32,000 bases of DNA, from the NCBI RefSeq assembly GCF_001462395.1, contig NZ_LNTB01000001.1, positions 840,001 to 872,000 on the forward strand. The letters run 5' to 3'. The stretch comes from Pyrodictium occultum (lineage in GTDB: Archaea > Thermoproteota > Thermoprotei_A > Sulfolobales > Pyrodictiaceae). A model generated the notes under the pieces. It worked only from the letters and a program-made list of their open reading frames with translations, ran no database searches and was not told the DNA's origin. Position 1 is the first letter of the stretch, and every line of letters begins with the position of its first letter. The position numbers were made by a program, and so were the translations under genes. Below, one piece after another: positions 19 through 15,683 of the stretch.

Positions 19-447
19 GTGATGGTTGTGATGGAGGTAATATTCGTGGAGGAGCACCCGCTCCGGGCCCGGATACTCCAGCTGCTCAGGGAGCATGGCG
101 CGGTATACTATAGCGAGCTCCTGCGCAGCCTTGAGGCCTCGCGGGCTACGCTCAGCTGGCACCTCTACGTGCTGCTGCGGGAGGGGCGTGTCGGGGCCAT
201 CCGGTACCGTAGGTATACCATCTACTACCTCCGGGGCCGCGAGCTCGAGGCCGTCAGGAGTATAGCTGGGAGGGATAGGCTGTTCTGCAGCGTTCTACGC
301 GACCTGGCGGCGGGCGCCCGGCCGGAGGAGGTGGCGGCTCGCTACGGGATAAGCGTCAGGGGGCTAGAGGGCCTGCGGGAGCTCGCCAGGAGGCTCCGGG
401 GCAGGCTCGATGAGGTCTGCGGCGAGGAGCAGAATGTAGGCGAGTGA
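19..447 (+). CDS. winged-helix (ArsR-like) transcriptional regulator
   Basis: 142-aa ORF (GTG 19; ATG alternatives at 22 and 31). The segment RARILQLLREHGAVYYSELLRSLEASRATLSWHLYVLLREGRV has the helix-turn-helix-plus-wing pattern of ArsR/SmtB-type wHTH proteins. It sits directly upstream of the secreted-protein/signal-peptidase operon. The upstream region is cut by the window edge. Confidence 0.6.
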   Translation: MMVVMEVIFVEEHPLRARILQLLREHGAVYYSELLRSLEASRATLSWHLYVLLREGRVGAIRYRRYTIYYLRGRELEAVRSIAGRDRLFCSVLRDLAAGARPEEVAARYGISVRGLEGLRELARRLRGRLDEVCGEEQNVGE

Positions 448-747: not shown

Positions 748-767
748 TACTATACCCCTTATATTGG
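748..767 (+). promoter_or_regulatory. TATA-like promoter element upstream of the first secreted-protein gene
   Basis: TACTATA (748-754) and TTATATT (759-765) form the only AT-rich patch in a ~370-bp G+C-rich spacer. They lie ~55-70 nt upstream of GTG 820. The resulting ~30-nt leader contains GGAGG (806-810). Confidence 0.35.
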
Positions 768-819
768 CTGAAAGCCTCCCAGAGGCCCCGGCGGCCATGG
801 AGTTCGGAGGTGGCTGGCG

Positions 820-1536
820 GTGAGGCTGCAGGGCAGGCGCAGGGCAACCCTACTAGTCATCCTGGCGGCGGTGGCAGCCCTGTCGGTAGCTAACGCGAGC
901 GTTTTCGCCTACCGGACACTCTATGGCAACGTCAAGATAGCTGATATAACGCAGGGCCAGGACCAGACCAGCATAACGCAGTATGGCCTGGCATGCGTAG
1001 GCTTCTACACGAGCGACTCTATAGAGGATCGGGGTGTGCTGCCCACCGCGGGCACGAACTACAACGCTGCGCCGATAGGGACCACGAGCACCGGCGGCTG
1101 GTACGGCGTGAATGTAGTCCCCGGAGACGTTGCCTGCAGCTGGACAAACACGAGCACCAATAACACCAACACGCTCTACAAGACAGCGACAGTGTATATA
1201 AACGTCACTAACGGTGACTGGTACTTCAAGGACATACTCGGCTTCGGCTACCCCAACATAACGAGCAGCCCAAGCCCCGCCTACGTGACAGTGCGTGTCG
1301 AGGGAGCCCTCAGCAACACCAACATAACTGAAGCTCTACTGAAGATATACGATGCTAGTAGCGGGAACCTCAGAGGGCAGATAGACCTGAAGAACAACGG
1401 CGACTACATCAACTTCACGCTGATGCCCGGCCAGGGAGTCCAGATAGACCTGGATCTCTCCGCCACCGGTGCTGTATCACTCGACAACTTCACAGTGAGG
1501 TTCTACATATCGCCGAGCAGCGAGCAGCCTAGGTAG
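820..1536 (+). CDS. secreted, N-glycosylation-sequon-rich protein with SipW-cognate-like signal peptide (candidate fibre/pilin major subunit)
   Basis: 238-aa ORF from GTG 820, preceded by GGAGG 10 nt upstream. The N terminus has a basic n-region (RLQGRRR), a hydrophobic h-region (ATLLVILAAVAALSV) and the motif ANASVFAYRTLYGNV, which recurs in ORF 3555..5117. The mature part is T/N/S/Y/G-rich and beta-like, with 8 N-x-S/T sequons. G+C is visibly lower than in the flanks. A hairpin plus T5 tract follows. Confidence 0.75.
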   Translation: MRLQGRRRATLLVILAAVAALSVANASVFAYRTLYGNVKIADITQGQDQTSITQYGLACVGFYTSDSIEDRGVLPTAGTNYNAAPIGTTSTGGWYGVNVVPGDVACSWTNTSTNNTNTLYKTATVYINVTNGDWYFKDILGFGYPNITSSPSPAYVTVRVEGALSNTNITEALLKIYDASSGNLRGQIDLKNNGDYINFTLMPGQGVQIDLDLSATGAVSLDNFTVRFYISPSSEQPR

Positions 1537-1576
1537 CCGGCACCCGGTGGCCGGGGTTAGCTCCCTCTCTTTTTCC
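1537..1576 (+). terminator. candidate intrinsic terminator (hairpin + oligo-T) after the 238-aa secreted-protein gene
   Basis: CCGGC-N8-GCCGG hairpin (1537-1554) starts immediately after the TAG stop. It is followed by the pyrimidine tract CTCCCTCTCTTTTTCC with T5 at 1570-1574. Oligo-T tracts act as archaeal termination signals and are rare in this G+C-rich window. Confidence 0.35.
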
Positions 1577-1675
1577 ACGGTCTTTGCCGCCTCTTGCATC
1601 TGCTTCACCGCGCGGCTCCCAGAGGGTCTCGGGGGCGCCGGCCCCAGCAGGGGTGCTTGATGGTGCAGAGACGCC

Positions 1676-2863
1676 ATGCCGGGGCTTGCCAGGGCTCTGG
1701 GCTACCTAGCGGCTGGTGTGCTGCTAGTCCTCCTCGCGGGTAAGATGCTCCGCCTACCCGTGGCCCTCATGATTGTCTACGGCACCTCCATGGAGCCTAC
1801 GTTTGAGCCCCTGGACCTGGTTCTCGGGGTGGAGCCTTGGCTGGCTGGGGGCGTGGAGAAGGGCGATGTAGTGGTCTGGTGCCTTCCGGGCGACTTCTGG
1901 AGGAGCAGCTGCGTCGTCCACCGCGTGGTGGACCTGGTGAACACGAGCAGGGGGGTGCTGGTGGTCACTAAGGGCGACGCGTTGGATGTCAGCGACCCGC
2001 CGGTCCCCATGGAGAGGGTTGCATATGTTGTAGTCTACCGGGCTCCCCGGGGGCTCGTTCTCCCCCTGCTCGCTGCTGCAGCCGCCGCGGCTGCAGGGTA
2101 CTACTACCTCTACCTCCCCTACGTGACCCACCGCCGCTACGCGCTGGAGCCCGGGGCCCCGGCGCTGCTCATGGTGCTCGCCTACGCCCTCTTCAACATC
2201 GCCTACGTGGGCTCCGGCATGCTAGACGCCTCGCCCGTCATCATCGACCTCCCGAGGGTCTATGGGGAGCATCTATCCTTCAACCTCTCGGCGGGCCTCC
2301 TGACGGTGAAGCTGAGCTACAATACTAGCCTCCACCCCTCCGGGCTCCCGAGCTGCAGCCTCGTGGGCGGGTTCAACGCGTCGCCGGTGGTCGAGGGCTT
2401 CAGCGCCCAGCCCGGGGAGGCGGTGATGGCTATACGCATCCCCCAGGAGGCTTTCATGGAGCTATGGCTCCTGGACACCAGGCGGGTCTCCAGGACAGCG
2501 CTCCCGCCTCCCCCAGCGAAGGTGGCTACCGGGCTCATGCTCCGCTGCAGCCTAGACTTCGACAAGGGGGTTCTCGAGGACACCTACCCCGTAGCCTTCT
2601 CGTGGTCCGAGCCCGTGGTGGAGGCCTCCGGGAAGACCCTGGTCCTCGGGAACCACAACCCGGTGCCAATCCCCGTGGAGGTCGTAGTCTACGCGCCCAG
2701 CCCCGGGGGAGGGTATAGGCTGGTCCACCGGGAGAGGCTCGTCCTAGACCCCTTCACCGTGGAGAGGCTCGACCTCTCCAAGCTCCCCGGGAGCCTCCGC
2801 GCCTACGTCCGCTACACCTTCCTAGGCCACTTTAGGAGCGTAGGGGTGACCCTCCATGGCTAG
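1676..2863 (+). CDS. signal peptidase I, S26B (SipW/Sec11-type, Ser-His) with two extra TM helices and a ~210-aa C-terminal domain
   Basis: 395 aa. An N-terminal TM anchor is followed by the S26B boxes: catalytic Ser in VYGTSMEPTF, catalytic His in CVVHRVVD, and TKGDALDVSDP (compare SipW SGSMEP / HR / KGDNN..D). Then come a poly-Ala/Tyr TM (LLAAAAAAAAGYYYLYL), a second TM (ALLMVLAYALFNIAYVG) and a beta-rich domain of unknown function (residues ~185-395). Confidence 0.85.
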   Translation: MPGLARALGYLAAGVLLVLLAGKMLRLPVALMIVYGTSMEPTFEPLDLVLGVEPWLAGGVEKGDVVVWCLPGDFWRSSCVVHRVVDLVNTSRGVLVVTKGDALDVSDPPVPMERVAYVVVYRAPRGLVLPLLAAAAAAAAGYYYLYLPYVTHRRYALEPGAPALLMVLAYALFNIAYVGSGMLDASPVIIDLPRVYGEHLSFNLSAGLLTVKLSYNTSLHPSGLPSCSLVGGFNASPVVEGFSAQPGEAVMAIRIPQEAFMELWLLDTRRVSRTALPPPPAKVATGLMLRCSLDFDKGVLEDTYPVAFSWSEPVVEASGKTLVLGNHNPVPIPVEVVVYAPSPGGGYRLVHRERLVLDPFTVERLDLSKLPGSLRAYVRYTFLGHFRSVGVTLHG

Positions 2864-3119
2864 CGGCTGGAACGTGTACGAGGCACGGGAGGCAGCCCTC
2901 AGGGCCTCCAGATACTACATGCTGGGCAGAGCCGCCCGGCTGGGAGTTGCAGCGGCCTCCCTGCTGGCCATAGCATCCTCCCTGCTGGTGCTCTTGCTGG
3001 CCCTCACCCCGCTCTACCGGTTCCAGGGGATTATGCTCAGCGGCTGGATCAGGCTCACCGGGTACCAGCTGGCCCTCTACGACGCCCCCTCCGCGTCCCC
3101 GTGCTCGACTCCCTCGTGA
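2856..3119 (+). CDS. small membrane protein (operon member, unknown function)
   Basis: 87 aa. Its ATG overlaps the peptidase stop by 8 nt (ATGGCTAG), suggesting translational coupling. It has one clear TM helix (LGVAAASLLAIASSLLVLLLALTPL) and overlaps the next ORF by 19 nt. It could be the 5' part of a single longer gene with 3101..3535 if a frameshift is present. Confidence 0.45.
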   Translation: MASGWNVYEAREAALRASRYYMLGRAARLGVAAASLLAIASSLLVLLLALTPLYRFQGIMLSGWIRLTGYQLALYDAPSASPCSTPS

Positions 3120-3535
3120 GGCTCTCCTTCACCCTTGTGCTCGGCCCCCTGCTCTCAACAGCCCTCGTCTCCCTAGCCCTGGCCTCCACAATCATGAGCC
3201 CCAAGGTGCCCAGGGTCTACCTCGAGGCGGCGGCGGCCGGCTACGCCGTAGCCGGGCTCACAGTAGCCCTACTCATATCCTTCCTCCGCGTCCTCTTCAG
3301 GGACATAATACCCTCCATACCCCTCGGCGGCCGCTTGCCCACAGCCTACGGGGTCTTCACCCTCCGCGGCTCGAGCGGCTGGTACACCGACGCGGGGCTC
3401 CTAGCCCTACGCCTCTGGAGCCTCTACCCCCTGCTCGCAGCCCTCCTCATAGCCGCCGCCGCGGCCCTCGTATACTACCTGGCACGCTACTACGAGGACC
3501 TCCTCGAAGAACCCCTCGTCTACAATACCAGCTAG
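3101..3535 (+). CDS. polytopic membrane protein (operon member, unknown function)
   Basis: 144 aa from a GTG start. Hydrophobic helices include LSFTLVLGPLLSTALVSLALAS, AAAAGYAVAGLTVALLISFL and LYPLLAALLIAAAAALVYYL, followed by an acidic tail (YYEDLLEEP). A 20-nt gap separates it from the next gene. Confidence 0.55.
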   Translation: MLDSLVRLSFTLVLGPLLSTALVSLALASTIMSPKVPRVYLEAAAAGYAVAGLTVALLISFLRVLFRDIIPSIPLGGRLPTAYGVFTLRGSSGWYTDAGLLALRLWSLYPLLAALLIAAAAALVYYLARYYEDLLEEPLVYNTS

Positions 3536-3554
3536 CCGGGGAGGAGGGAGAGCC

Positions 3555-5117
3555 GTGATGCGCGGGGGGCGCAGGAGGCTAGCTCTCGCGGCCCTGGCTC
3601 TAGCCATGCTAGCGCTTGTGGCCGACGCCACGCTCTTCGCTGTCAGGAGCCTGGAGGGGAGCGTCCACGCCGAGCCAACCTGGCTGATATGGTACCAGGA
3701 TCCCGGCACCCCGGGCGTGGTAACGAGCATAGATGGGCTGGAAGCTAGCGCGACCGTGGAGGTGCCGACGGGCATAGTGCTTGAAAAGAGGCACGCAATC
3801 TACTACGACACGTTCGACCAGCAGCCCAACTTCACATCCTCACCATACTGTAGCGGCGTCCTGGAGTGGAACCAGACGGGCCACTACATGGTGGTAAACA
3901 TAAGTGCCCTTGGATGGTATTATGACAGGCGGTATGGTGTTTACCAGCTTCCTAGGTGGTACTGCTACTTCTACCCGTCAAGCCTCGATATAAGCAGCTA
4001 CGTGGCCAACGGTAGCGGGGTCTACGCGGCAGCCATAATGTGGCGTAATGGATACTACTATGTTGGCGATTGGCTGCGCGTGGGTTTCGCATACGCTAAC
4101 GACACCACCTGGGATAGCTACCTCATAGGCCTACGCGATGAAGTTCTCGCTGGTCTTACCGGCGATAATGCTAATGCTACAGCGTATTACTACAATTATT
4201 CTCAGGGGACGTACTACGTCTCGTTGCTGAACGAGTCGTCTCTCCCAAGCGGCGCGTATGGCTTCGAGGGACTATACCACCATAACATGAGTGCCGGTAT
4301 AGACTTCAACGCATGGGATGCGGGGTTCTGGAGCATAGGCCTTACCGTGAACTCTTCGAGCACGCTGCGAGCGCTCAAAGCCTATATAAACGAGTCGTAT
4401 AGGTTCACGCCTAATCGCGTCGGCGTGGGCGTCGACACAGAGTATATCTACGCCTATACCCTCGATGGACTCCCATACATATACTTTGACAACTTTGTTG
4501 TCACTGTTGACGCTTATCCCTGGCTGGTTAATGTCACGGGGCTCTTGCCCGGCTGGAGGGTTGTGCTGCTGAACTCTACCGGCGGGGTGGTGGACGAGGC
4601 TACCGCTGGGAGTGATGGCGTTGCCTCGCTGAGCGTCTGGGGCTACCTGATAGTCCCCAATGCCTCGATAGAGGTCTACGACGACCAGGGCCGGCTGGTG
4701 GCCAGGGCGAGCTTCAGCTACGTTGTCGGCGGCGACGTCTACAGGGTTGAGCGCTTCGCCGGCAGGGTGCTAGACATCTACTCGGACCTCGCCCAGGGCT
4801 TCGTGACGTGGCTCGAGCTCGTGGACACTAACTGCACCCTGCTGGACAGCGGCCATGTCTACATCTTCCTCTACAACTCGTCGGGGGCCGCGGCGGCGCC
4901 CATAGAGGTAGTGGACGGGGTCATAGTGTCCAGCAGCACCGGCCAGGTCTCGGCCGCGCCTACGGGCTCCGGGGGGAGCTGGCTGGCCGGCTGGATATGG
5001 GCCACCGCCTACCTGCCCGGCGGGGCCCGCTGCTTCGTCGACCTTAGGGAGGTGTTTGAGGTGGCCCCCGGCGTCTACACCTACGGCCGCGCCAGGATAG
5101 TCTTTAGCGCCCGGTAG
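3555..5117 (+). CDS. large secreted sequon-rich protein with the same SipW-cognate-like signal peptide (candidate minor/tip/anchor subunit or adhesin)
   Basis: 520 aa (GTG 3555 or ATG 3558) with GGAGGAGGGAG just upstream. The N terminus is RGGRRR + LALAALALAMLALV + ADATLFAVRSLEGSV, parallel to ORF 820..1536. The protein is Y/W/N/G-rich and beta-like, with 16 N-x-S/T sequons. G+C is markedly lower between ~3780 and ~4540. Confidence 0.8.
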   Translation: MMRGGRRRLALAALALAMLALVADATLFAVRSLEGSVHAEPTWLIWYQDPGTPGVVTSIDGLEASATVEVPTGIVLEKRHAIYYDTFDQQPNFTSSPYCSGVLEWNQTGHYMVVNISALGWYYDRRYGVYQLPRWYCYFYPSSLDISSYVANGSGVYAAAIMWRNGYYYVGDWLRVGFAYANDTTWDSYLIGLRDEVLAGLTGDNANATAYYYNYSQGTYYVSLLNESSLPSGAYGFEGLYHHNMSAGIDFNAWDAGFWSIGLTVNSSSTLRALKAYINESYRFTPNRVGVGVDTEYIYAYTLDGLPYIYFDNFVVTVDAYPWLVNVTGLLPGWRVVLLNSTGGVVDEATAGSDGVASLSVWGYLIVPNASIEVYDDQGRLVARASFSYVVGGDVYRVERFAGRVLDIYSDLAQGFVTWLELVDTNCTLLDSGHVYIFLYNSSGAAAAPIEVVDGVIVSSSTGQVSAAPTGSGGSWLAGWIWATAYLPGGARCFVDLREVFEVAPGVYTYGRARIVFSAR

Positions 5118-7651: not shown

Positions 7652-8977
7652 CTAGACGGGGCGGGTGTGGCCCCACTTCTCCAGCGCCCGGGCCAGCTCG
7701 CGGTGCTTCTCGGCATACTCCTCGAGGGGCACGCCCTCCACAGCAGCCTCCACCGCCTGCCTCATCGCCGCCGCGCCCGCCCTGGGGCCGTCGGGGTGGC
7801 CTATGACGCCGCCGCCCGCCTGGATGATTATGTCCAGGCCCAGGCTCCTTATGACGGGCTCGATGTTGCCCGGGTGGAGGCCGCCGCTGGAGACGGGGAG
7901 CACCGGCCGGAGCCCGGCCCAGTCCTGCTCCATGTGGATGATGTCGCCCTCCCGTGGCTTGTAGACGGGCTCCCGGAGCACGCGGGCGTACTCGACCACC
8001 TCCCCGGCCCGGGCCTCCATCTTGCCGACGCCGGGCGTGCCCACGTGGAGGTGGTCGAGCCCCGCCAGCCTCCCGAGCTTCGCCACCACGAACATGGAGA
8101 CGCCGTGCCGGGGGTTCCGGGTGAACGCGGCGTGGAAGGCGCGGTGCCCGTGGATCGCTAGCCCGTATTCCCCGGCTAGCTCCCTGGCGTGCTGGAGCGC
8201 GGCCCAGCCGGCGGTGAGGAAGTCTATCATTATGAATTTGTTGCCATAGTCCGCGACCAGCTTGATCCTCCGCTCCATCTCCTTCACTGGCGCGGTCACG
8301 TTGGCCAGGTAGCCCTTCCTCTCCCCCGTCTCCTTCTCAGCCCTCTCGACGGCCTTCATCACCTCCCGGAGCCTTGCCTCGAACCTGCAGAGCCGCTGGC
8401 CGGCAACATTCTCGTCATCCTTCACGAGGTCCACCCCGCCCGCGAGTATCTCGTAGGCCGTCCTCCCATACTCCTCGGGGGTGTACCCCATCTTCGGCTT
8501 GGGCACAGTGGCTAGGATGGGGCGGCTCTCGACGCCGAGTATCTTCCTCACGCCCTCTACCCCGTGGCCGGGGCCCGGGAAGCTGGCGACGTAGCCGCGG
8601 GGGAGCCTTATCTCCTCTAGCCGCAGGGCCTCGACAGCCCTCATGCCGAAAACGTTGCCCATGACGCTGCTTGCCAGGTTCGGTATACTCCCCTCCTCGA
8701 AGAGCTCCGAGGGGTAGGCTATCCAGACGAGCCAGCTCCCATCCCCCAGGCTGTGGAACCGGTATGCCCTGGCGCGGAGCCGGTCGTAGAGGCTCGGCTT
8801 AACGCTAAGCGTGGTCCAGGTCCCCACGCTGCTCTCAGCCGCCACCCGGGCGGCGGCGTCGCGCACGCTGAGCCCCTCAGCCGGCGCGACGCGGAACACG
8901 GCGACGAGGTCCCCGGGGCCGGGCTCGTAGCCCTCATCCACGAACTCCTGGTAAGCGTCGCGCGGCACGCTGGGCAC
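7652..8977 (-). CDS. rbcL: ribulose-1,5-bisphosphate carboxylase/oxygenase large subunit, form III
   Basis: RbcL motifs are GTWTTL, VPKPKMGY (carbamylated Lys region), GGVDLVKDDEN, GLAIHGHRAFHAAFTRNP, LHVGTPG, SSGGLHPG and QAGGGVIGHPDG. The C terminus ELARALEKWGHTRPV closely resembles Thermococcus kodakarensis RbcL as I recall it. The longest ORF opens at GTG 9049 (465 aa). I place the start at in-frame GTG 8977 (441 aa), which puts FVDEGYEP at residues 12-19 as in the characterised archaeal enzyme. GTG 9049 is only ~10 nt downstream of a TATA-like TTTATGA (9056-9062, minus strand). The start remains uncertain. Confidence 0.93.
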   Translation of the reverse strand: MPSVPRDAYQEFVDEGYEPGPGDLVAVFRVAPAEGLSVRDAAARVAAESSVGTWTTLSVKPSLYDRLRARAYRFHSLGDGSWLVWIAYPSELFEEGSIPNLASSVMGNVFGMRAVEALRLEEIRLPRGYVASFPGPGHGVEGVRKILGVESRPILATVPKPKMGYTPEEYGRTAYEILAGGVDLVKDDENVAGQRLCRFEARLREVMKAVERAEKETGERKGYLANVTAPVKEMERRIKLVADYGNKFIMIDFLTAGWAALQHARELAGEYGLAIHGHRAFHAAFTRNPRHGVSMFVVAKLGRLAGLDHLHVGTPGVGKMEARAGEVVEYARVLREPVYKPREGDIIHMEQDWAGLRPVLPVSSGGLHPGNIEPVIRSLGLDIIIQAGGGVIGHPDGPRAGAAAMRQAVEAAVEGVPLEEYAEKHRELARALEKWGHTRPV

Positions 8978-9196
8978 CCACGCACGTACGCTCTGCTCCC
9001 TGCATGGTGTAGGAGGAGCCCGGGGGGCTCCACGTAGAGCCGGCACCACGAGCCCTCATAAACCCTGGCAGAAGCCTGCCCGTGCTACGGGCTCATCCCG
9101 GGGTATTAGCGCGGCCATGGAGCAGGCCTCTTGCTCCAAGGCCATGTAGCTTTAAAACCCCGGCCCCTGCTAGCAGAGGGCGGAGGATAGAGGGCA

Positions 9197-13893: not shown

Positions 13894-14484
13894 CTAGAGA
13901 CTGAGGGCCTCCCTGGCCTCGCGGATAGCCTTCTCGGCCTCCTCTAGCTTGCCGGAGGCCTGGCGGACCGCCTCCCTAAGCCGGCCGAGCTTCTCCCGCA
14001 TCTCAGTGTTCTCGGCGCGTAGCTGCTTCAGCTCCTCCTCCAGCTTCTTCACCTGCTCGTGGAGCTGCTTCAGCTCCGTCTCGGCCTCCGGGCTTACTAT
14101 GGGGACCGCCAGCTTCAACTCGCCCCGCGTCAGCATCTCGTAGGTCTCCCGGACCAGCTTGCCCGCCTTGGTCTCCCCGCGGAGGTGGCGGCGTATCGTA
14201 GCCTCGGTGCGGCCCAGCTCCTCGGCTATCTGGCTCACAGTGTACCCGGCCTTCTCCATGGCGAGCGCTGCCGCCGCCACCGCGAGGCTGTCGACCCAGG
14301 TGAGGAACTCCTCCTTGTTCAGAGCAGCCTTTATAACGTCCGGCCTGAACATGGTGCCTATTATGAGCATTGCCTCGAGCTGCCTAACCTCCCTCTTGGA
14401 GACGGGCTTGACCGGAACCTCTACCGGCAGGGAGACCTCGCGTAGCTTGAGGCCCTCCTCCTGGTTAGACTCCTGGGCGGCCAT
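13894..14484 (-). CDS. HTH domain protein with C-terminal coiled coil (putative regulator)
   Basis: The track ORF opens at GTG 14631 but overlaps the radical SAM gene. ATG 14484 (MAAQESNQEEG...) follows a T-rich box. An HTH-like segment (GYTVSQIAEELGRTEATIRRHLRG) is followed by a heptad-like E/K/L-rich coiled coil (ELKQLHEQVKKLEEELKQLRAENTEMREKLGRLREA...). Confidence 0.65.
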   Translation of the reverse strand: MAAQESNQEEGLKLREVSLPVEVPVKPVSKREVRQLEAMLIIGTMFRPDVIKAALNKEEFLTWVDSLAVAAAALAMEKAGYTVSQIAEELGRTEATIRRHLRGETKAGKLVRETYEMLTRGELKLAVPIVSPEAETELKQLHEQVKKLEEELKQLRAENTEMREKLGRLREAVRQASGKLEEAEKAIREAREALSL

Positions 14485-14518
14485 ACGTACACCCGTAATA
14501 TGGTGTAGGGGGCTCCTT

Positions 14519-14529
14519 GAAATAAAAAG
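14519..14529 (-). promoter_or_regulatory. T/A-rich element: TATA box of the HTH/coiled-coil gene and/or oligo-T terminator of the radical SAM gene
   Basis: The minus strand reads GCTTTTTATTTC. It lies ~30 nt downstream of the radical SAM stop (14556) and ~35-45 nt upstream of ATG 14484. Confidence 0.4.
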
Positions 14530-14555
14530 CTGTCCTCCATGCCCTCGGGCCCACC

Positions 14556-15683
14556 CTAGTATATCATGAGGGGCAGTATGTCGCCGCCCCCGCCATGGAA
14601 CCTGCCTCTTATGTTTATCCTGTAGCCGCACTTGGGGCAGCGGTTGTCCCGGGTGAGCCTCCAGGCCAGTATAGCGAAGCCCCTCCTCTCTATCACCTTG
14701 TAGCCGCAGCGTGGACAGTAGGTGCTCTCAAGCGGGTGGCCCCACACGTTGCCTATGTAGACGTACTGTAGACCCTCCTCCTTCGCCGCATTGGCCAGCC
14801 TCTCCAGGGTCTCCACGGGTGTGGGCGGCACATCCCTCATCCTAAAGTCTGGATGGAAGCGGAGCAGGTGGAAGGGCGTCTCCGGGCCGAGGTTCTCGAC
14901 TATCCAGCGTGCGAGCCTCCTAATATCCTCCACTCGGTCCCCATACTTGGGCACCACCAGGTTGGTGACCTCTATGAACCAGCCGGCCTTCTTCATCTCC
15001 AGCAGCGCGGTGTAGATTGGGGAGGGGTCGGGGACAGCCATAAACCTGCGGTAGAACTCGGGGTTCCCGCCGCCCTTGAAGTCCACCGTGGCGGCGTCCA
15101 TGTAGGGGGCTAGCGCCCTTATCGCTTCGGGGGTGGCGTAGCCGTTGGTCACCATCATGTTGAAGAGCCCGTGCTTCTTAGCTATCTTAGCTACATCCCT
15201 CATGTACTCGAAGAATATTATAGGCTCGTTGTAGGTGTAGGCTATCCCGTCGGCCCCATACTCTAGGGCCTTCTCTACGACCTTCTCGGGCTCCACGTAG
15301 CGGCCGTAGAGCCCTCTCTCGAGCCGGGACTGGCTTATCTCCCAGTTCTGGCAGAACTGGCAGTAGAAGTTGCAGCCCACAGTGCTTATCGAGAGAACCT
15401 GGCTCCCGGGCTCGAAGTGGAACATGGGCTTCTTCTCTATAGGGTCAATATTCATCGCCGTGAGCAGCCCGTAGACGAGGGTGTAGAGCCTACCCCCTAC
15501 GTTCTTCCGGACCCCGCAGACCCCATACTTGCCCGGCGCTATGATGCAGCGGCGGGCGCAGAGGTCGCAGCGCACGTAGCCCGGCCTATCCCGGAGCGGC
15601 ACCCACAGCTCGGCCTCACGCACATAGGGACGCCGGGGCAGGCTCTCCTGCCTCACCTGCCCGCCGGAGGTAGTGGACGCCAC
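14556..15683 (-). CDS. radical SAM enzyme, AmmeMemoRadiSam-system type (PflA-activase-like)
   Basis: 375 aa. It has the CxxxCxxC cluster in GCNFYCQFCQNWEISQ and the N-terminal Cys motif CDLCARRCIIAPGKYGVCGVRKN. IDPIEKKPMFHF and the C-terminal zinc ribbon CPRCG...CPKCG are also present. This combination is typical of the radical SAM member of the AMMECR1/Memo/radical SAM triad. Confidence 0.88.
   Translation of the reverse strand: MASTTSGGQVRQESLPRRPYVREAELWVPLRDRPGYVRCDLCARRCIIAPGKYGVCGVRKNVGGRLYTLVYGLLTAMNIDPIEKKPMFHFEPGSQVLSISTVGCNFYCQFCQNWEISQSRLERGLYGRYVEPEKVVEKALEYGADGIAYTYNEPIIFFEYMRDVAKIAKKHGLFNMMVTNGYATPEAIRALAPYMDAATVDFKGGGNPEFYRRFMAVPDPSPIYTALLEMKKAGWFIEVTNLVVPKYGDRVEDIRRLARWIVENLGPETPFHLLRFHPDFRMRDVPPTPVETLERLANAAKEEGLQYVYIGNVWGHPLESTYCPRCGYKVIERRGFAILAWRLTRDNRCPKCGYRINIRGRFHGGGGDILPLMIY

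Follow-up and report, generated by a model that had tools for sequence, protein, structure and literature searches.

The question raised by positions 820 to 5117 of a 32,000-nucleotide stretch of Pyrodictium occultum PL-19 DNA (the window) is whether the genes encoded there build a surface filament, and if so of which kind. An earlier model-made reading of this DNA, the original prediction, had described an operon in which a SipW-type signal peptidase serves two secreted glycoproteins of 238 and 520 amino acids (aa), on the plan of the tapA-sipW-tasA operon of Bacillus subtilis. Threads, archaeal bundling pili (ABP), AbpX, TasA and Tafi fibres are all assembled by donor-strand complementation, and several of them have dedicated genes for a type I signal peptidase (SPase I). 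How the archaeal donor-strand filaments are assembled and anchored is stated in the literature to be unknown, and no chaperone, usher or enzyme has been assigned. We found that the locus is a cassette of four genes, all with their open reading frames (ORFs) on the + strand, which encode a candidate fibre subunit (238 aa), an SPase I fusion, a four-transmembrane (4-TM) protein and a candidate cap or tip protein (520 aa). A match between the subunit model and AbpA, together with the co-conservation of the genes, supports the central claim of the original prediction, namely a conserved operon for a secreted, probably polymerising fibre protein of the TasA superfamily with its own endoplasmic reticulum (ER)/SipW-type peptidase. 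Overall, we consider it likely that the module specifies a surface filament of the donor-strand type (not type IV) within the TasA superfamily, nearest to the group of the Sulfolobus thread and the Pyrobaculum bundling pilus.

Relationship of the 238-aa protein to thread and bundling-pilus subunits

The 238-aa protein has a signal peptide (residues 1-26) with a hydrophobic h-region and a predicted cleavage site VANA↓S (the arrow marks the cut here and below), and the N-terminus behind the signal, A↓SVFAYRTLYGNVKI, resembles a donor strand. It carries 8 N-glycosylation sequons, seven of them in the mature part, compared with 3.5 +/- 1.6 in composition-matched shuffles; Cys59 and Cys106 are conserved, and aspartate and glutamate (D+E) account for 7% of its residues. 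Nine close homologues were returned by a word-indexed search and about 27 full-length relatives by an exhaustive profile search. Members of this family (alignment A3) share the N-terminus VVNA↓(S/T/A)VFAYRxLxGxVxV (27 members), two invariant cysteines, the motifs GFY, LPxAGTNY and GFGY, and a C-terminal ExP.

By sequence, the nearest characterised family is the 0406 thread of Sulfolobus and not TasA/camelysin, with which the original prediction had drawn its parallel. The thread of Sulfolobus acidocaldarius is encoded by the cluster Saci_0404-0408, and its heavily glycosylated subunit is Saci_0406 (PDB 7PNB/8RZL; arCOG10215). No PDB sequence was matched when the 238-aa family was used for profile searches, and the thread link arose only via a family of 184-206-aa proteins (A6) drawn from the weaker matches of the profile search. 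With hhalign, A3 aligned with A6 at 99.8% (E 2.9e-28) and directly with Saci_0406 at 77% (E 2e-5 over 109 columns), and the A6 profile matched Saci_0406 (7PNB) over its full length with E 1e-10. In the alignment, A26↓S27 of the 238-aa protein falls on the experimentally observed A23↓D24 N-terminus of Saci_0406. At the sequence level, the 238-aa protein reads as a distant relative of the Saci_0406 thread subunit, not as its orthologue.

The structural comparison pointed to the bundling pilus. An AlphaFold2 (AF2) model of the 238-aa protein, with an overall pLDDT of 68, reached 75-90 in its C-terminal two-thirds, and in a Foldseek search of the PDB this model had AbpA (7UEG) as its sole match with E<1e-3 (E 7.9e-5, prob 1.0), the runners-up being FimA donor-strand pilins. 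In profile comparison, A6 aligned with AbpA at 76.5% (hhalign). The resemblance to a polymerising fold that the original prediction had called for was therefore found in the subunit model. Because of the homology to A6 and Saci_0406, the AbpA-like model and the aligned cleavage site, we assign the 238-aa protein, on sequence and model evidence, to the TasA superfamily as a relative of threads and ABP.

A strand-matched, lectin-like protein as candidate cap

The 520-aa protein also has a signal peptide, with predicted cleavage VADA↓T, and its N-terminal strand A↓TLFAVRSLEGSVHA matches that of the subunit. That the two secreted proteins share an unusual motif in the signal and cleavage region had been proposed from this one pair of sequences, and we found it conserved family-wide. 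The N-terminus of the 520-aa protein aligned with the subunit family at 95.4% (hhalign, E 2e-8) and with A6 at 84.5%, reaching through a PPxxF element. The protein contains 16 sequons, compared with 2.8 +/- 1.5 in composition-matched shuffles, so that the counts of 8 and 16 in the original prediction are both correct and both in excess of chance. Subunit and tip strands are more alike within a genome than across genomes (RTL/RSL, YRW/YRW, YYP/YIP); the mean BLOSUM62 score was 26 within genomes versus 14 across them, and only 8 of 5040 pairings reached the observed sum, a co-variation that is partly due to shared ancestry alone.

In the AF2 model of the 520-aa protein (pLDDT 82), strand residues 29-40 are disordered, residues ~45-320 resemble ConA and legume lectins (Foldseek E 1.6e-6, prob 1.0, TM ~0.5 on the target), and two further beta domains follow the lectin-like one. 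TapA (6HQC) was not among the top 50 Foldseek matches of this model, which were mainly legume lectins with scattered others. The 520-aa family is wider than that of the subunit (26 matches), and some of its members occur without the other cassette genes.

We regard the 520-aa protein, on sequence and model grounds, as a candidate cap, nucleator or adhesin and not as a fibre subunit, and as an exchangeable part, since one metagenome-assembled genome (MAG) swaps in a DUF2341 protein. By analogy, it may work like TapA, AbpB or Saci_0405 without belonging to those families. The original prediction had laid these roles onto tapA-sipW-tasA in the reverse sense; the 238-aa protein takes the place of the fibre subunit, and the 520-aa protein that of the TapA/AbpB/Saci_0405-like accessory. 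The name 'Thermopsin', which UniRef gives to a 519-aa form, was considered and rejected: none of 23 family members matched Pfam Thermopsin, which makes the public label look mistaken.

A relative of the 520-aa protein was also found in Infirmifilum lucidum (CP062310.1, 4996-9971; locus L008), where the genes for a membrane-anchored helix-turn-helix (HTH) protein, a 184-aa homologue of AbpA (E 1.3e-16 against 7UEG), a secreted protein of 481 aa and a protein of 656 aa stand in a row. The 656-aa protein is the relative in question; it has an extra N-terminal insertion of ~190 aa, and its start is AbpA-like by eye. When its N-terminal 220 aa were compared with AbpA, the match was no better than 19% (E 0.0012, single-sequence profiles), so that the resemblance is suggestive at most. 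This arrangement suggests that the tip body is fused to whichever donor module fits the local pilin.

The split membrane-protein gene

Five genes had originally been counted, among them two for TM proteins of 87 and 144 aa that overlap by 19 nt. This pair is an artefact of a one-base difference, so that the genes of the cassette number four. At nt 3085-3089 the window reads C5, whereas L001, a near-identical contig from another assembly, has C6 and encodes a single 226-aa protein; the intact form is present in three further independent assemblies. All homologues of the 4-TM protein are single-ORF (~230 aa in close relatives, 203 aa in the contig L018), and the alignments cross the junction unbroken. 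Because the C6 assemblies are intact and the homologues single-ORF, we treat the two ORFs as one gene. The C5 frameshift is most likely an assembly error, although it may be a genuine mutation. The 226-aa protein has four hydrophobic segments, and no Pfam family, DUF5305 included, matched any of five 4-TM proteins at E<=10.

A similar situation is seen in the Sulfolobus thread cluster, where saci_0407/0408 are two genes in strain DSM 639 but a single one in SUSAZ.

Over 6 kb, ~20 positions distinguish the window from L001, which is a second P. occultum-like assembly. Four single-nucleotide polymorphisms (SNPs) fall in the subunit gene, and each of them changes an amino acid (E69K, T157I, R185I, M202T); a patch of the tip gene (3927-3950, around residues 125-132) is rewritten, and the peptidase gene is identical. 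This pattern hints at diversifying selection on exposed surfaces, albeit from small numbers.

A signal peptidase fused to an additional domain

The peptidase scored 46.6 bits against TIGR02228 (archaeal signal peptidase I; cut-off 51.85) over model positions 26-118, 23 against the SipW model (cut-off 190; E 4e-5) and, weakly, 13.6 against Pfam Peptidase_S26 (cut-off 22.9). Its sequence reads as that of a divergent family member lying below the curated cut-offs. Ser38 (SMEP), His82 (HR) and Asp107 (DPP) are invariant in seven peptidase homologues, a Ser/His/Asp arrangement that, as judged from the sequences, is the ER/archaeal S26B pattern.

The extra TM helices, two in number, and the large extra domain noted in the original prediction are evident. 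Hydrophobic segments lie at residues 3-21, 127-145 and 160-178, and beyond the usual helix-domain-helix there is the third helix followed by a conserved C-terminal domain of ~215 aa. This domain is beta-rich and is probably extracellular, since it carries three sequons. Cys291, Phe295, W310xEP and N326xNP are invariant in it among the seven homologues, and five such domains had no Pfam match at E<=10, DUF5305 included. No second SPase I is encoded elsewhere in the 32-kb window.

Conservation of the cassette

The order subunit, peptidase, 4-TM protein and large secreted protein is found in Stetteria hydrogenophila, Staphylothermus hellenicus and Desulfurococcus kamchatkensis. In an Ignisphaera MAG (L013) the order is subunit, large protein, peptidase and 4-TM protein, and a hot-spring metagenome contig has an Ignisphaera-like reordered arrangement around a shorter, thread-like subunit. 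In the MAG mentioned above, the subunit, peptidase and 4-TM genes are kept and the fourth gene, in the same position, encodes an unrelated 762-aa DUF2341 protein. We take DUF2341 to be lectin/LamG-like. As to the yield of the individual searches, the word-indexed homologue search with the peptidase gave two proteins, a genome scan with the tip alignment gave five loci and missed known ones, and a metagenome scan with alignment A8 gave two loci, one of them informative.

These loci confirm that the cassette genes travel together in relatives, as the original prediction required. The genes flanking the cassette differ in every genome compared, and the peptidase gene adjoins the subunit gene in all cassette loci, including the rearranged ones. 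Since this adjacency persists through rearrangements, and by analogy with known systems, we infer that the peptidase is dedicated to the cassette.

The winged-helix (wHTH) and C25 peptidase genes that had been reported on either side are indeed there (Table 1). They do not form part of the conserved unit, and we rejected them as cassette parts: no other genome examined keeps them adjacent, the wHTH gene is not beside the cassette in the Stetteria, Staphylothermus, Desulfurococcus and MAG loci, and because the flanking genes vary by genome both are considered mere neighbours. Other HTH proteins are encoded near the Ignisphaera and Infirmifilum loci, and it is possible that the wHTH protein acts as a local regulator of the cassette.

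Two of the loci showed additional genes. At 14312-14842 of the Ignisphaera locus, a 176-aa paralogue of the subunit is encoded downstream of the cassette, past a divergently transcribed gene for a membrane-anchored HTH protein; it has the N-terminus ANA↓SAYTYIATANFY and the conserved Cys-x-GF, and could be a minor subunit, one without a counterpart in the P. occultum locus. In L018 (1547-4928, - strand), proteins of 145 and 994 aa adjoin a thread-like cassette. Their N-termini resemble archaeal type IV prepilin signals, a stretch of the 994-aa protein is DUF2341-like by eye only, and the two may represent a separate adhesive pilus system beside the donor-strand one.

Comparison with known donor-strand systems

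The cassette resembles the Sulfolobus thread in several respects: the sequence homology of the subunit through A6; a Sec/SPI signal with cleavage after Ala at the aligned position (predicted here); an N-terminal donor strand (predicted here) and heavy N-glycosylation (sequons here); a second protein with the N-terminal strand of the subunit, proposed as a filament cap; and uncharacterised accessory genes that co-occur, two of which are separate in some strains but joined into one in others. In the thread, the proposed cap is Saci_0405, which has a donor strand and no groove, Saci_0407/0408 have been termed 'elusive', and the assembly pathway is stated as unknown. There are also clear differences. 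The thread papers report Asp24 and YYY as conserved in true thread homologues, whereas the mature N-terminus here is Ser/Thr/Ala with FAYR instead of Asp-x-x-YYY, and for this reason the Asn57-Asp24 isopeptide is not expected. The subunit here is 30-40 aa longer, with an insertion that carries the two invariant cysteines, and the cap combines a Sec signal with a large lectin-like body, whereas Saci_0405 is subunit-like with no predicted signal. The thread cluster is not reported to contain a signal peptidase of its own.

The ABP operon comprises AbpA, AbpB, 4-TM proteins and a wHTH protein; the 2022 paper found no dedicated peptidase, whereas according to a 2026 AbpX preprint an SPase I gene often accompanies abpA. 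The likeness to ABP lies in AbpA being the best and sole significant structural match of the subunit model, in the 4-TM proteins, the large protein with a beta-rich ectodomain and the wHTH regulator of the ABP operon, and in the relative of the 520-aa protein two genes after the AbpA homologue of Infirmifilum. The differences are that AbpB has a beta-sandwich of the TapA type, in contrast to the lectin-like 520-aa protein, and that direct profile similarity to AbpA is weak.

With tapA-sipW-tasA, whose fibre the literature places in the same superfamily, the cassette shares its basic logic: the fibre subunit comes with its own ER-type signal peptidase and with an accessory that imitates the donor strand by its N-terminus. 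SipW, however, is minimal and has no extra domain, there is no 4-TM partner in that operon, and the Peptidase_M73 and SipW-cognate-signal models have no matches here.

The AbpX loci of Thermoproteota and the Tafi loci of haloarchaea contain a subunit, an SPase I, a DUF5305 accessory, a tip, minor subunits and a regulator, and the DUF5305 accessory is sometimes fused to the SPase I. The overall parts list, the variable tips and the occasional transcription factors are thus shared, and fusion of an SPase to an accessory is a known concept. In contrast, the AbpX-linked SPase I has ten TM helices versus three here, no DUF5305 was detected with Pfam in the peptidase tail or the 4-TM protein, export is predicted to be by Sec and not by Tat, and the subunit belongs to another clade and is not acidic (7% D+E versus the ~15% reported for AbpX).

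Proposed mechanism

We propose that the subunit gene has a promoter of its own and that the hairpin and T5 run behind it (Table 1) would let only some transcripts pass into the translationally coupled peptidase, 4-TM and tip genes. By homology with the characterised systems, the 238-aa pre-subunit and the 520-aa pre-tip would be exported by Sec, and the Ser/His/Asp peptidase of the cassette would cut both after small residues, at VANA↓S and VADA↓T, which would free an N-terminal amphipathic beta-strand on each. Both proteins would be N-glycosylated. Subunits would then polymerise head-to-tail, each N-terminal strand entering the groove of the neighbouring jelly-roll, and the 520-aa protein, whose body is lectin-like and not that of a subunit, would hold one end of the filament as cap, nucleator or adhesin. 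The outer domain of the peptidase and the 4-TM protein probably form a membrane platform, which would couple cleavage to assembly or anchoring; this is the least-supported step of the scheme.

A bolder version, which we put forward tentatively and hold to be rather doubtful, is that the peptidase fusion and its 4-TM partner constitute the assembly platform of thread- and bundling-type archaeal filaments in general. The signal peptide would tether the pre-subunit while the outer domain or the 4-TM loops held the acceptor groove or the donor strand, and cleavage would hand the new N-terminus to the base of the growing filament, making processing and polymerisation a single step. Such a platform would stand in for the bacterial chaperone-usher pair, and Saci_0407/0408 of the Sulfolobus thread cluster would be the same machine.

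Weighing the filament against other explanations

Several observations speak against a filament of this kind. No filament has been reported for the 238-aa family, and older electron microscopy of P. occultum describes cannulae only. A3 compared with a two-sequence AbpA profile gave a weak 31% (hhalign), the TM-scores of the subunit model to AbpA are modest (0.42/0.54), the N-terminal half of that model has a pLDDT below 60, and 7PNB was not in its top 50 Foldseek matches. The thread hallmarks, an N-terminal Asp and the YYY motif, are absent from the family, in which the mature N-terminus begins with S/T/A and continues as (V/A)F(A/I)YR. The profile checks suggested with the original prediction came out negative, as neither secreted protein matched Pfam Peptidase_M73 or the SipW-cognate signal model TIGR04088 at E<=1 (Pfam, NCBIfam); membership of the TasA/camelysin family in the strict sense is thereby excluded, that of the superfamily is not. 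Finally, the dedication of the peptidase is drawn from adjacency to the subunit gene and from analogy.

The alternative that fares best, although we judge it improbable, is that the 238- and 520-aa proteins, perhaps a lectin and its partner, are glycoproteins of a common secreted or S-layer-associated kind and do not polymerise, and that the peptidase is a general signal peptidase encoded beside abundant substrates. The lack of an experimental filament for the family fits this explanation, as do the match of the peptidase to the generic archaeal SPase I model and the frequency of jelly-roll and lectin folds among non-polymeric surface proteins. Plain secretion, however, would have no need of a shared, co-varying strand behind the cleavage site; the homology of the subunit family extends to a filament subunit for which the donor-strand mode is proven; and the peptidase scores under the housekeeping-model cut-off, has a family-specific extra domain and moves with the subunit gene.

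It is more improbable still that the filament exists and that the S26 homologue serves its assembly or cross-linking, for example by templating or catalysing bonds between subunits, with cleavage left to a housekeeping SPase. The large extra extracellular domain and the obligate 4-TM neighbour of the peptidase could be read in this way, and the thread literature offers neither an enzyme for the isopeptide bonds nor an assembly machinery. Against it, the catalytic triad is what an ordinary SPase would have and the small-residue -1/-3 sites of both substrates are what it would cut, the proteins here lack the Asp N-terminus that takes part in the thread isopeptide, and SipW, TafD and the AbpX-linked SPase all read as true signal peptidases.

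Least probable of all is that the 520-aa protein is the functional centre, as a thermopsin-like or glycan-acting enzyme or a lectin that the others mature, with the 238-aa protein as chaperone or inhibitor: the UniRef name and the breadth of the 520-aa family, whose members at times lack the other genes, lend it some colour, but no family member matches Pfam Thermopsin or any enzyme family, the fold matches are lectins and not peptidases, and one MAG keeps the other three genes with the DUF2341 protein in the 520-aa place.

The donor-strand filament remains the explanation we favour, and parts of it had been described before. The original prediction had called the system undescribed; this does not hold for the subunit, WP_058370724.1, which was named a putative ABP in 2025 (PMC12518558), nor for the general plan, since comparable AbpX and Tafi loci have been published. 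We found no description of the operon of the 238-aa gene in the literature, and what appears to be new is the peptidase fusion with its 4-TM partner, the tie of both to thread-type subunits, and a lectin-type, strand-matched, swappable cap. Fibres served by a peptidase of their own are an established idea, and the advance is therefore incremental and not conceptual. Nevertheless, the cassette links a thread-related subunit to a peptidase fusion, a 4-TM protein and a swappable lectin-type cap in at least five Desulfurococcales genera, which provides concrete candidates for the thread/ABP assembly machinery and makes the assembly route more testable. In Pyrodictium it would be the third TasA-superfamily system, after cannulae and AbpX, and it bears on how the extracellular matrix is built.

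Expression signals and genomic surroundings

All ORFs of the original prediction were recovered at the positions it had given, as were the Shine-Dalgarno sequence and the hairpin with T5 of the subunit gene (Table 1). The TATA-like box lies ~55 nt 5' of the subunit start codon; a sigma-70 (bacterial-type) scan also happens to flag this AT-rich spot. The hairpin has a 5-bp stem, in which 1537-1541 pairs with 1550-1554, and TTTTT follows at 1570-1574. A bacterial-type terminator scan did not flag it, because the T run begins 16 nt past the stem. Judged from its sequence, it is a probable partial terminator that would raise the ratio of subunit to accessory proteins. The start of the 4-TM gene overlaps the stop of the peptidase gene by 8 nt.

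Table 1. Positions in the window of the cassette genes, their expression signals and the adjoining genes
Feature	Position	Strand	Remarks
ArsR/HTH_20 winged-helix (wHTH) protein	19-447	+	Pfam/NCBIfam match; neighbour
TATA-like box TTATATT, putative archaeal promoter	759-765	+	Sequence reading, inferred
Shine-Dalgarno-like GGAGGTG	806-812	+	7 nt ahead of GTG start at 820
Candidate subunit precursor, 238 aa	820-1536	+	WP_058370724.1 / CF15_04495; accession identity confirmed by exact-sequence look-up
GC hairpin + T5	1537-1574	+	Probable partial terminator
S26B signal peptidase I fusion, 395 aa	1676-2863	+	WP_058370725.1 / CF15_04500, named 'S26 family signal peptidase'
4-TM protein, 226 aa, one gene	2856-3535	+	Split here into CF15_04505 (87 aa) + CF15_04510 (144 aa)
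Cap/tip-adhesin candidate, 520 aa	3555-5117	+	WP_168371274.1 / CF15_04515
Peptidase_C25 protein, 849 aa	5127-7676	-	Pfam E 1e-25; convergent with cassette

Within the cassette and its two neighbours, Pfam and NCBIfam together recognised only three proteins (ArsR/HTH_20, Peptidase_C25 and, weakly, the peptidase); the subunit, the 4-TM protein and the tip had no match, nor had the tail of the peptidase. The C25 protein, of gingipain type, has an N-terminal hydrophobic segment and an Ala-rich hydrophobic C-terminal tail ending in RRRAGG. The rest of the window (7652-32000) is housekeeping DNA, which encodes a type III RuBisCO (7652-9049, - strand), Sir2, DUF711 and radical SAM proteins, cobalamin salvage (CbiZ, CobS, CobD), a CbiM/Q/O cobalt transporter and, at the 3' end, three antiporter subunits of the Mrp/NuoL type.

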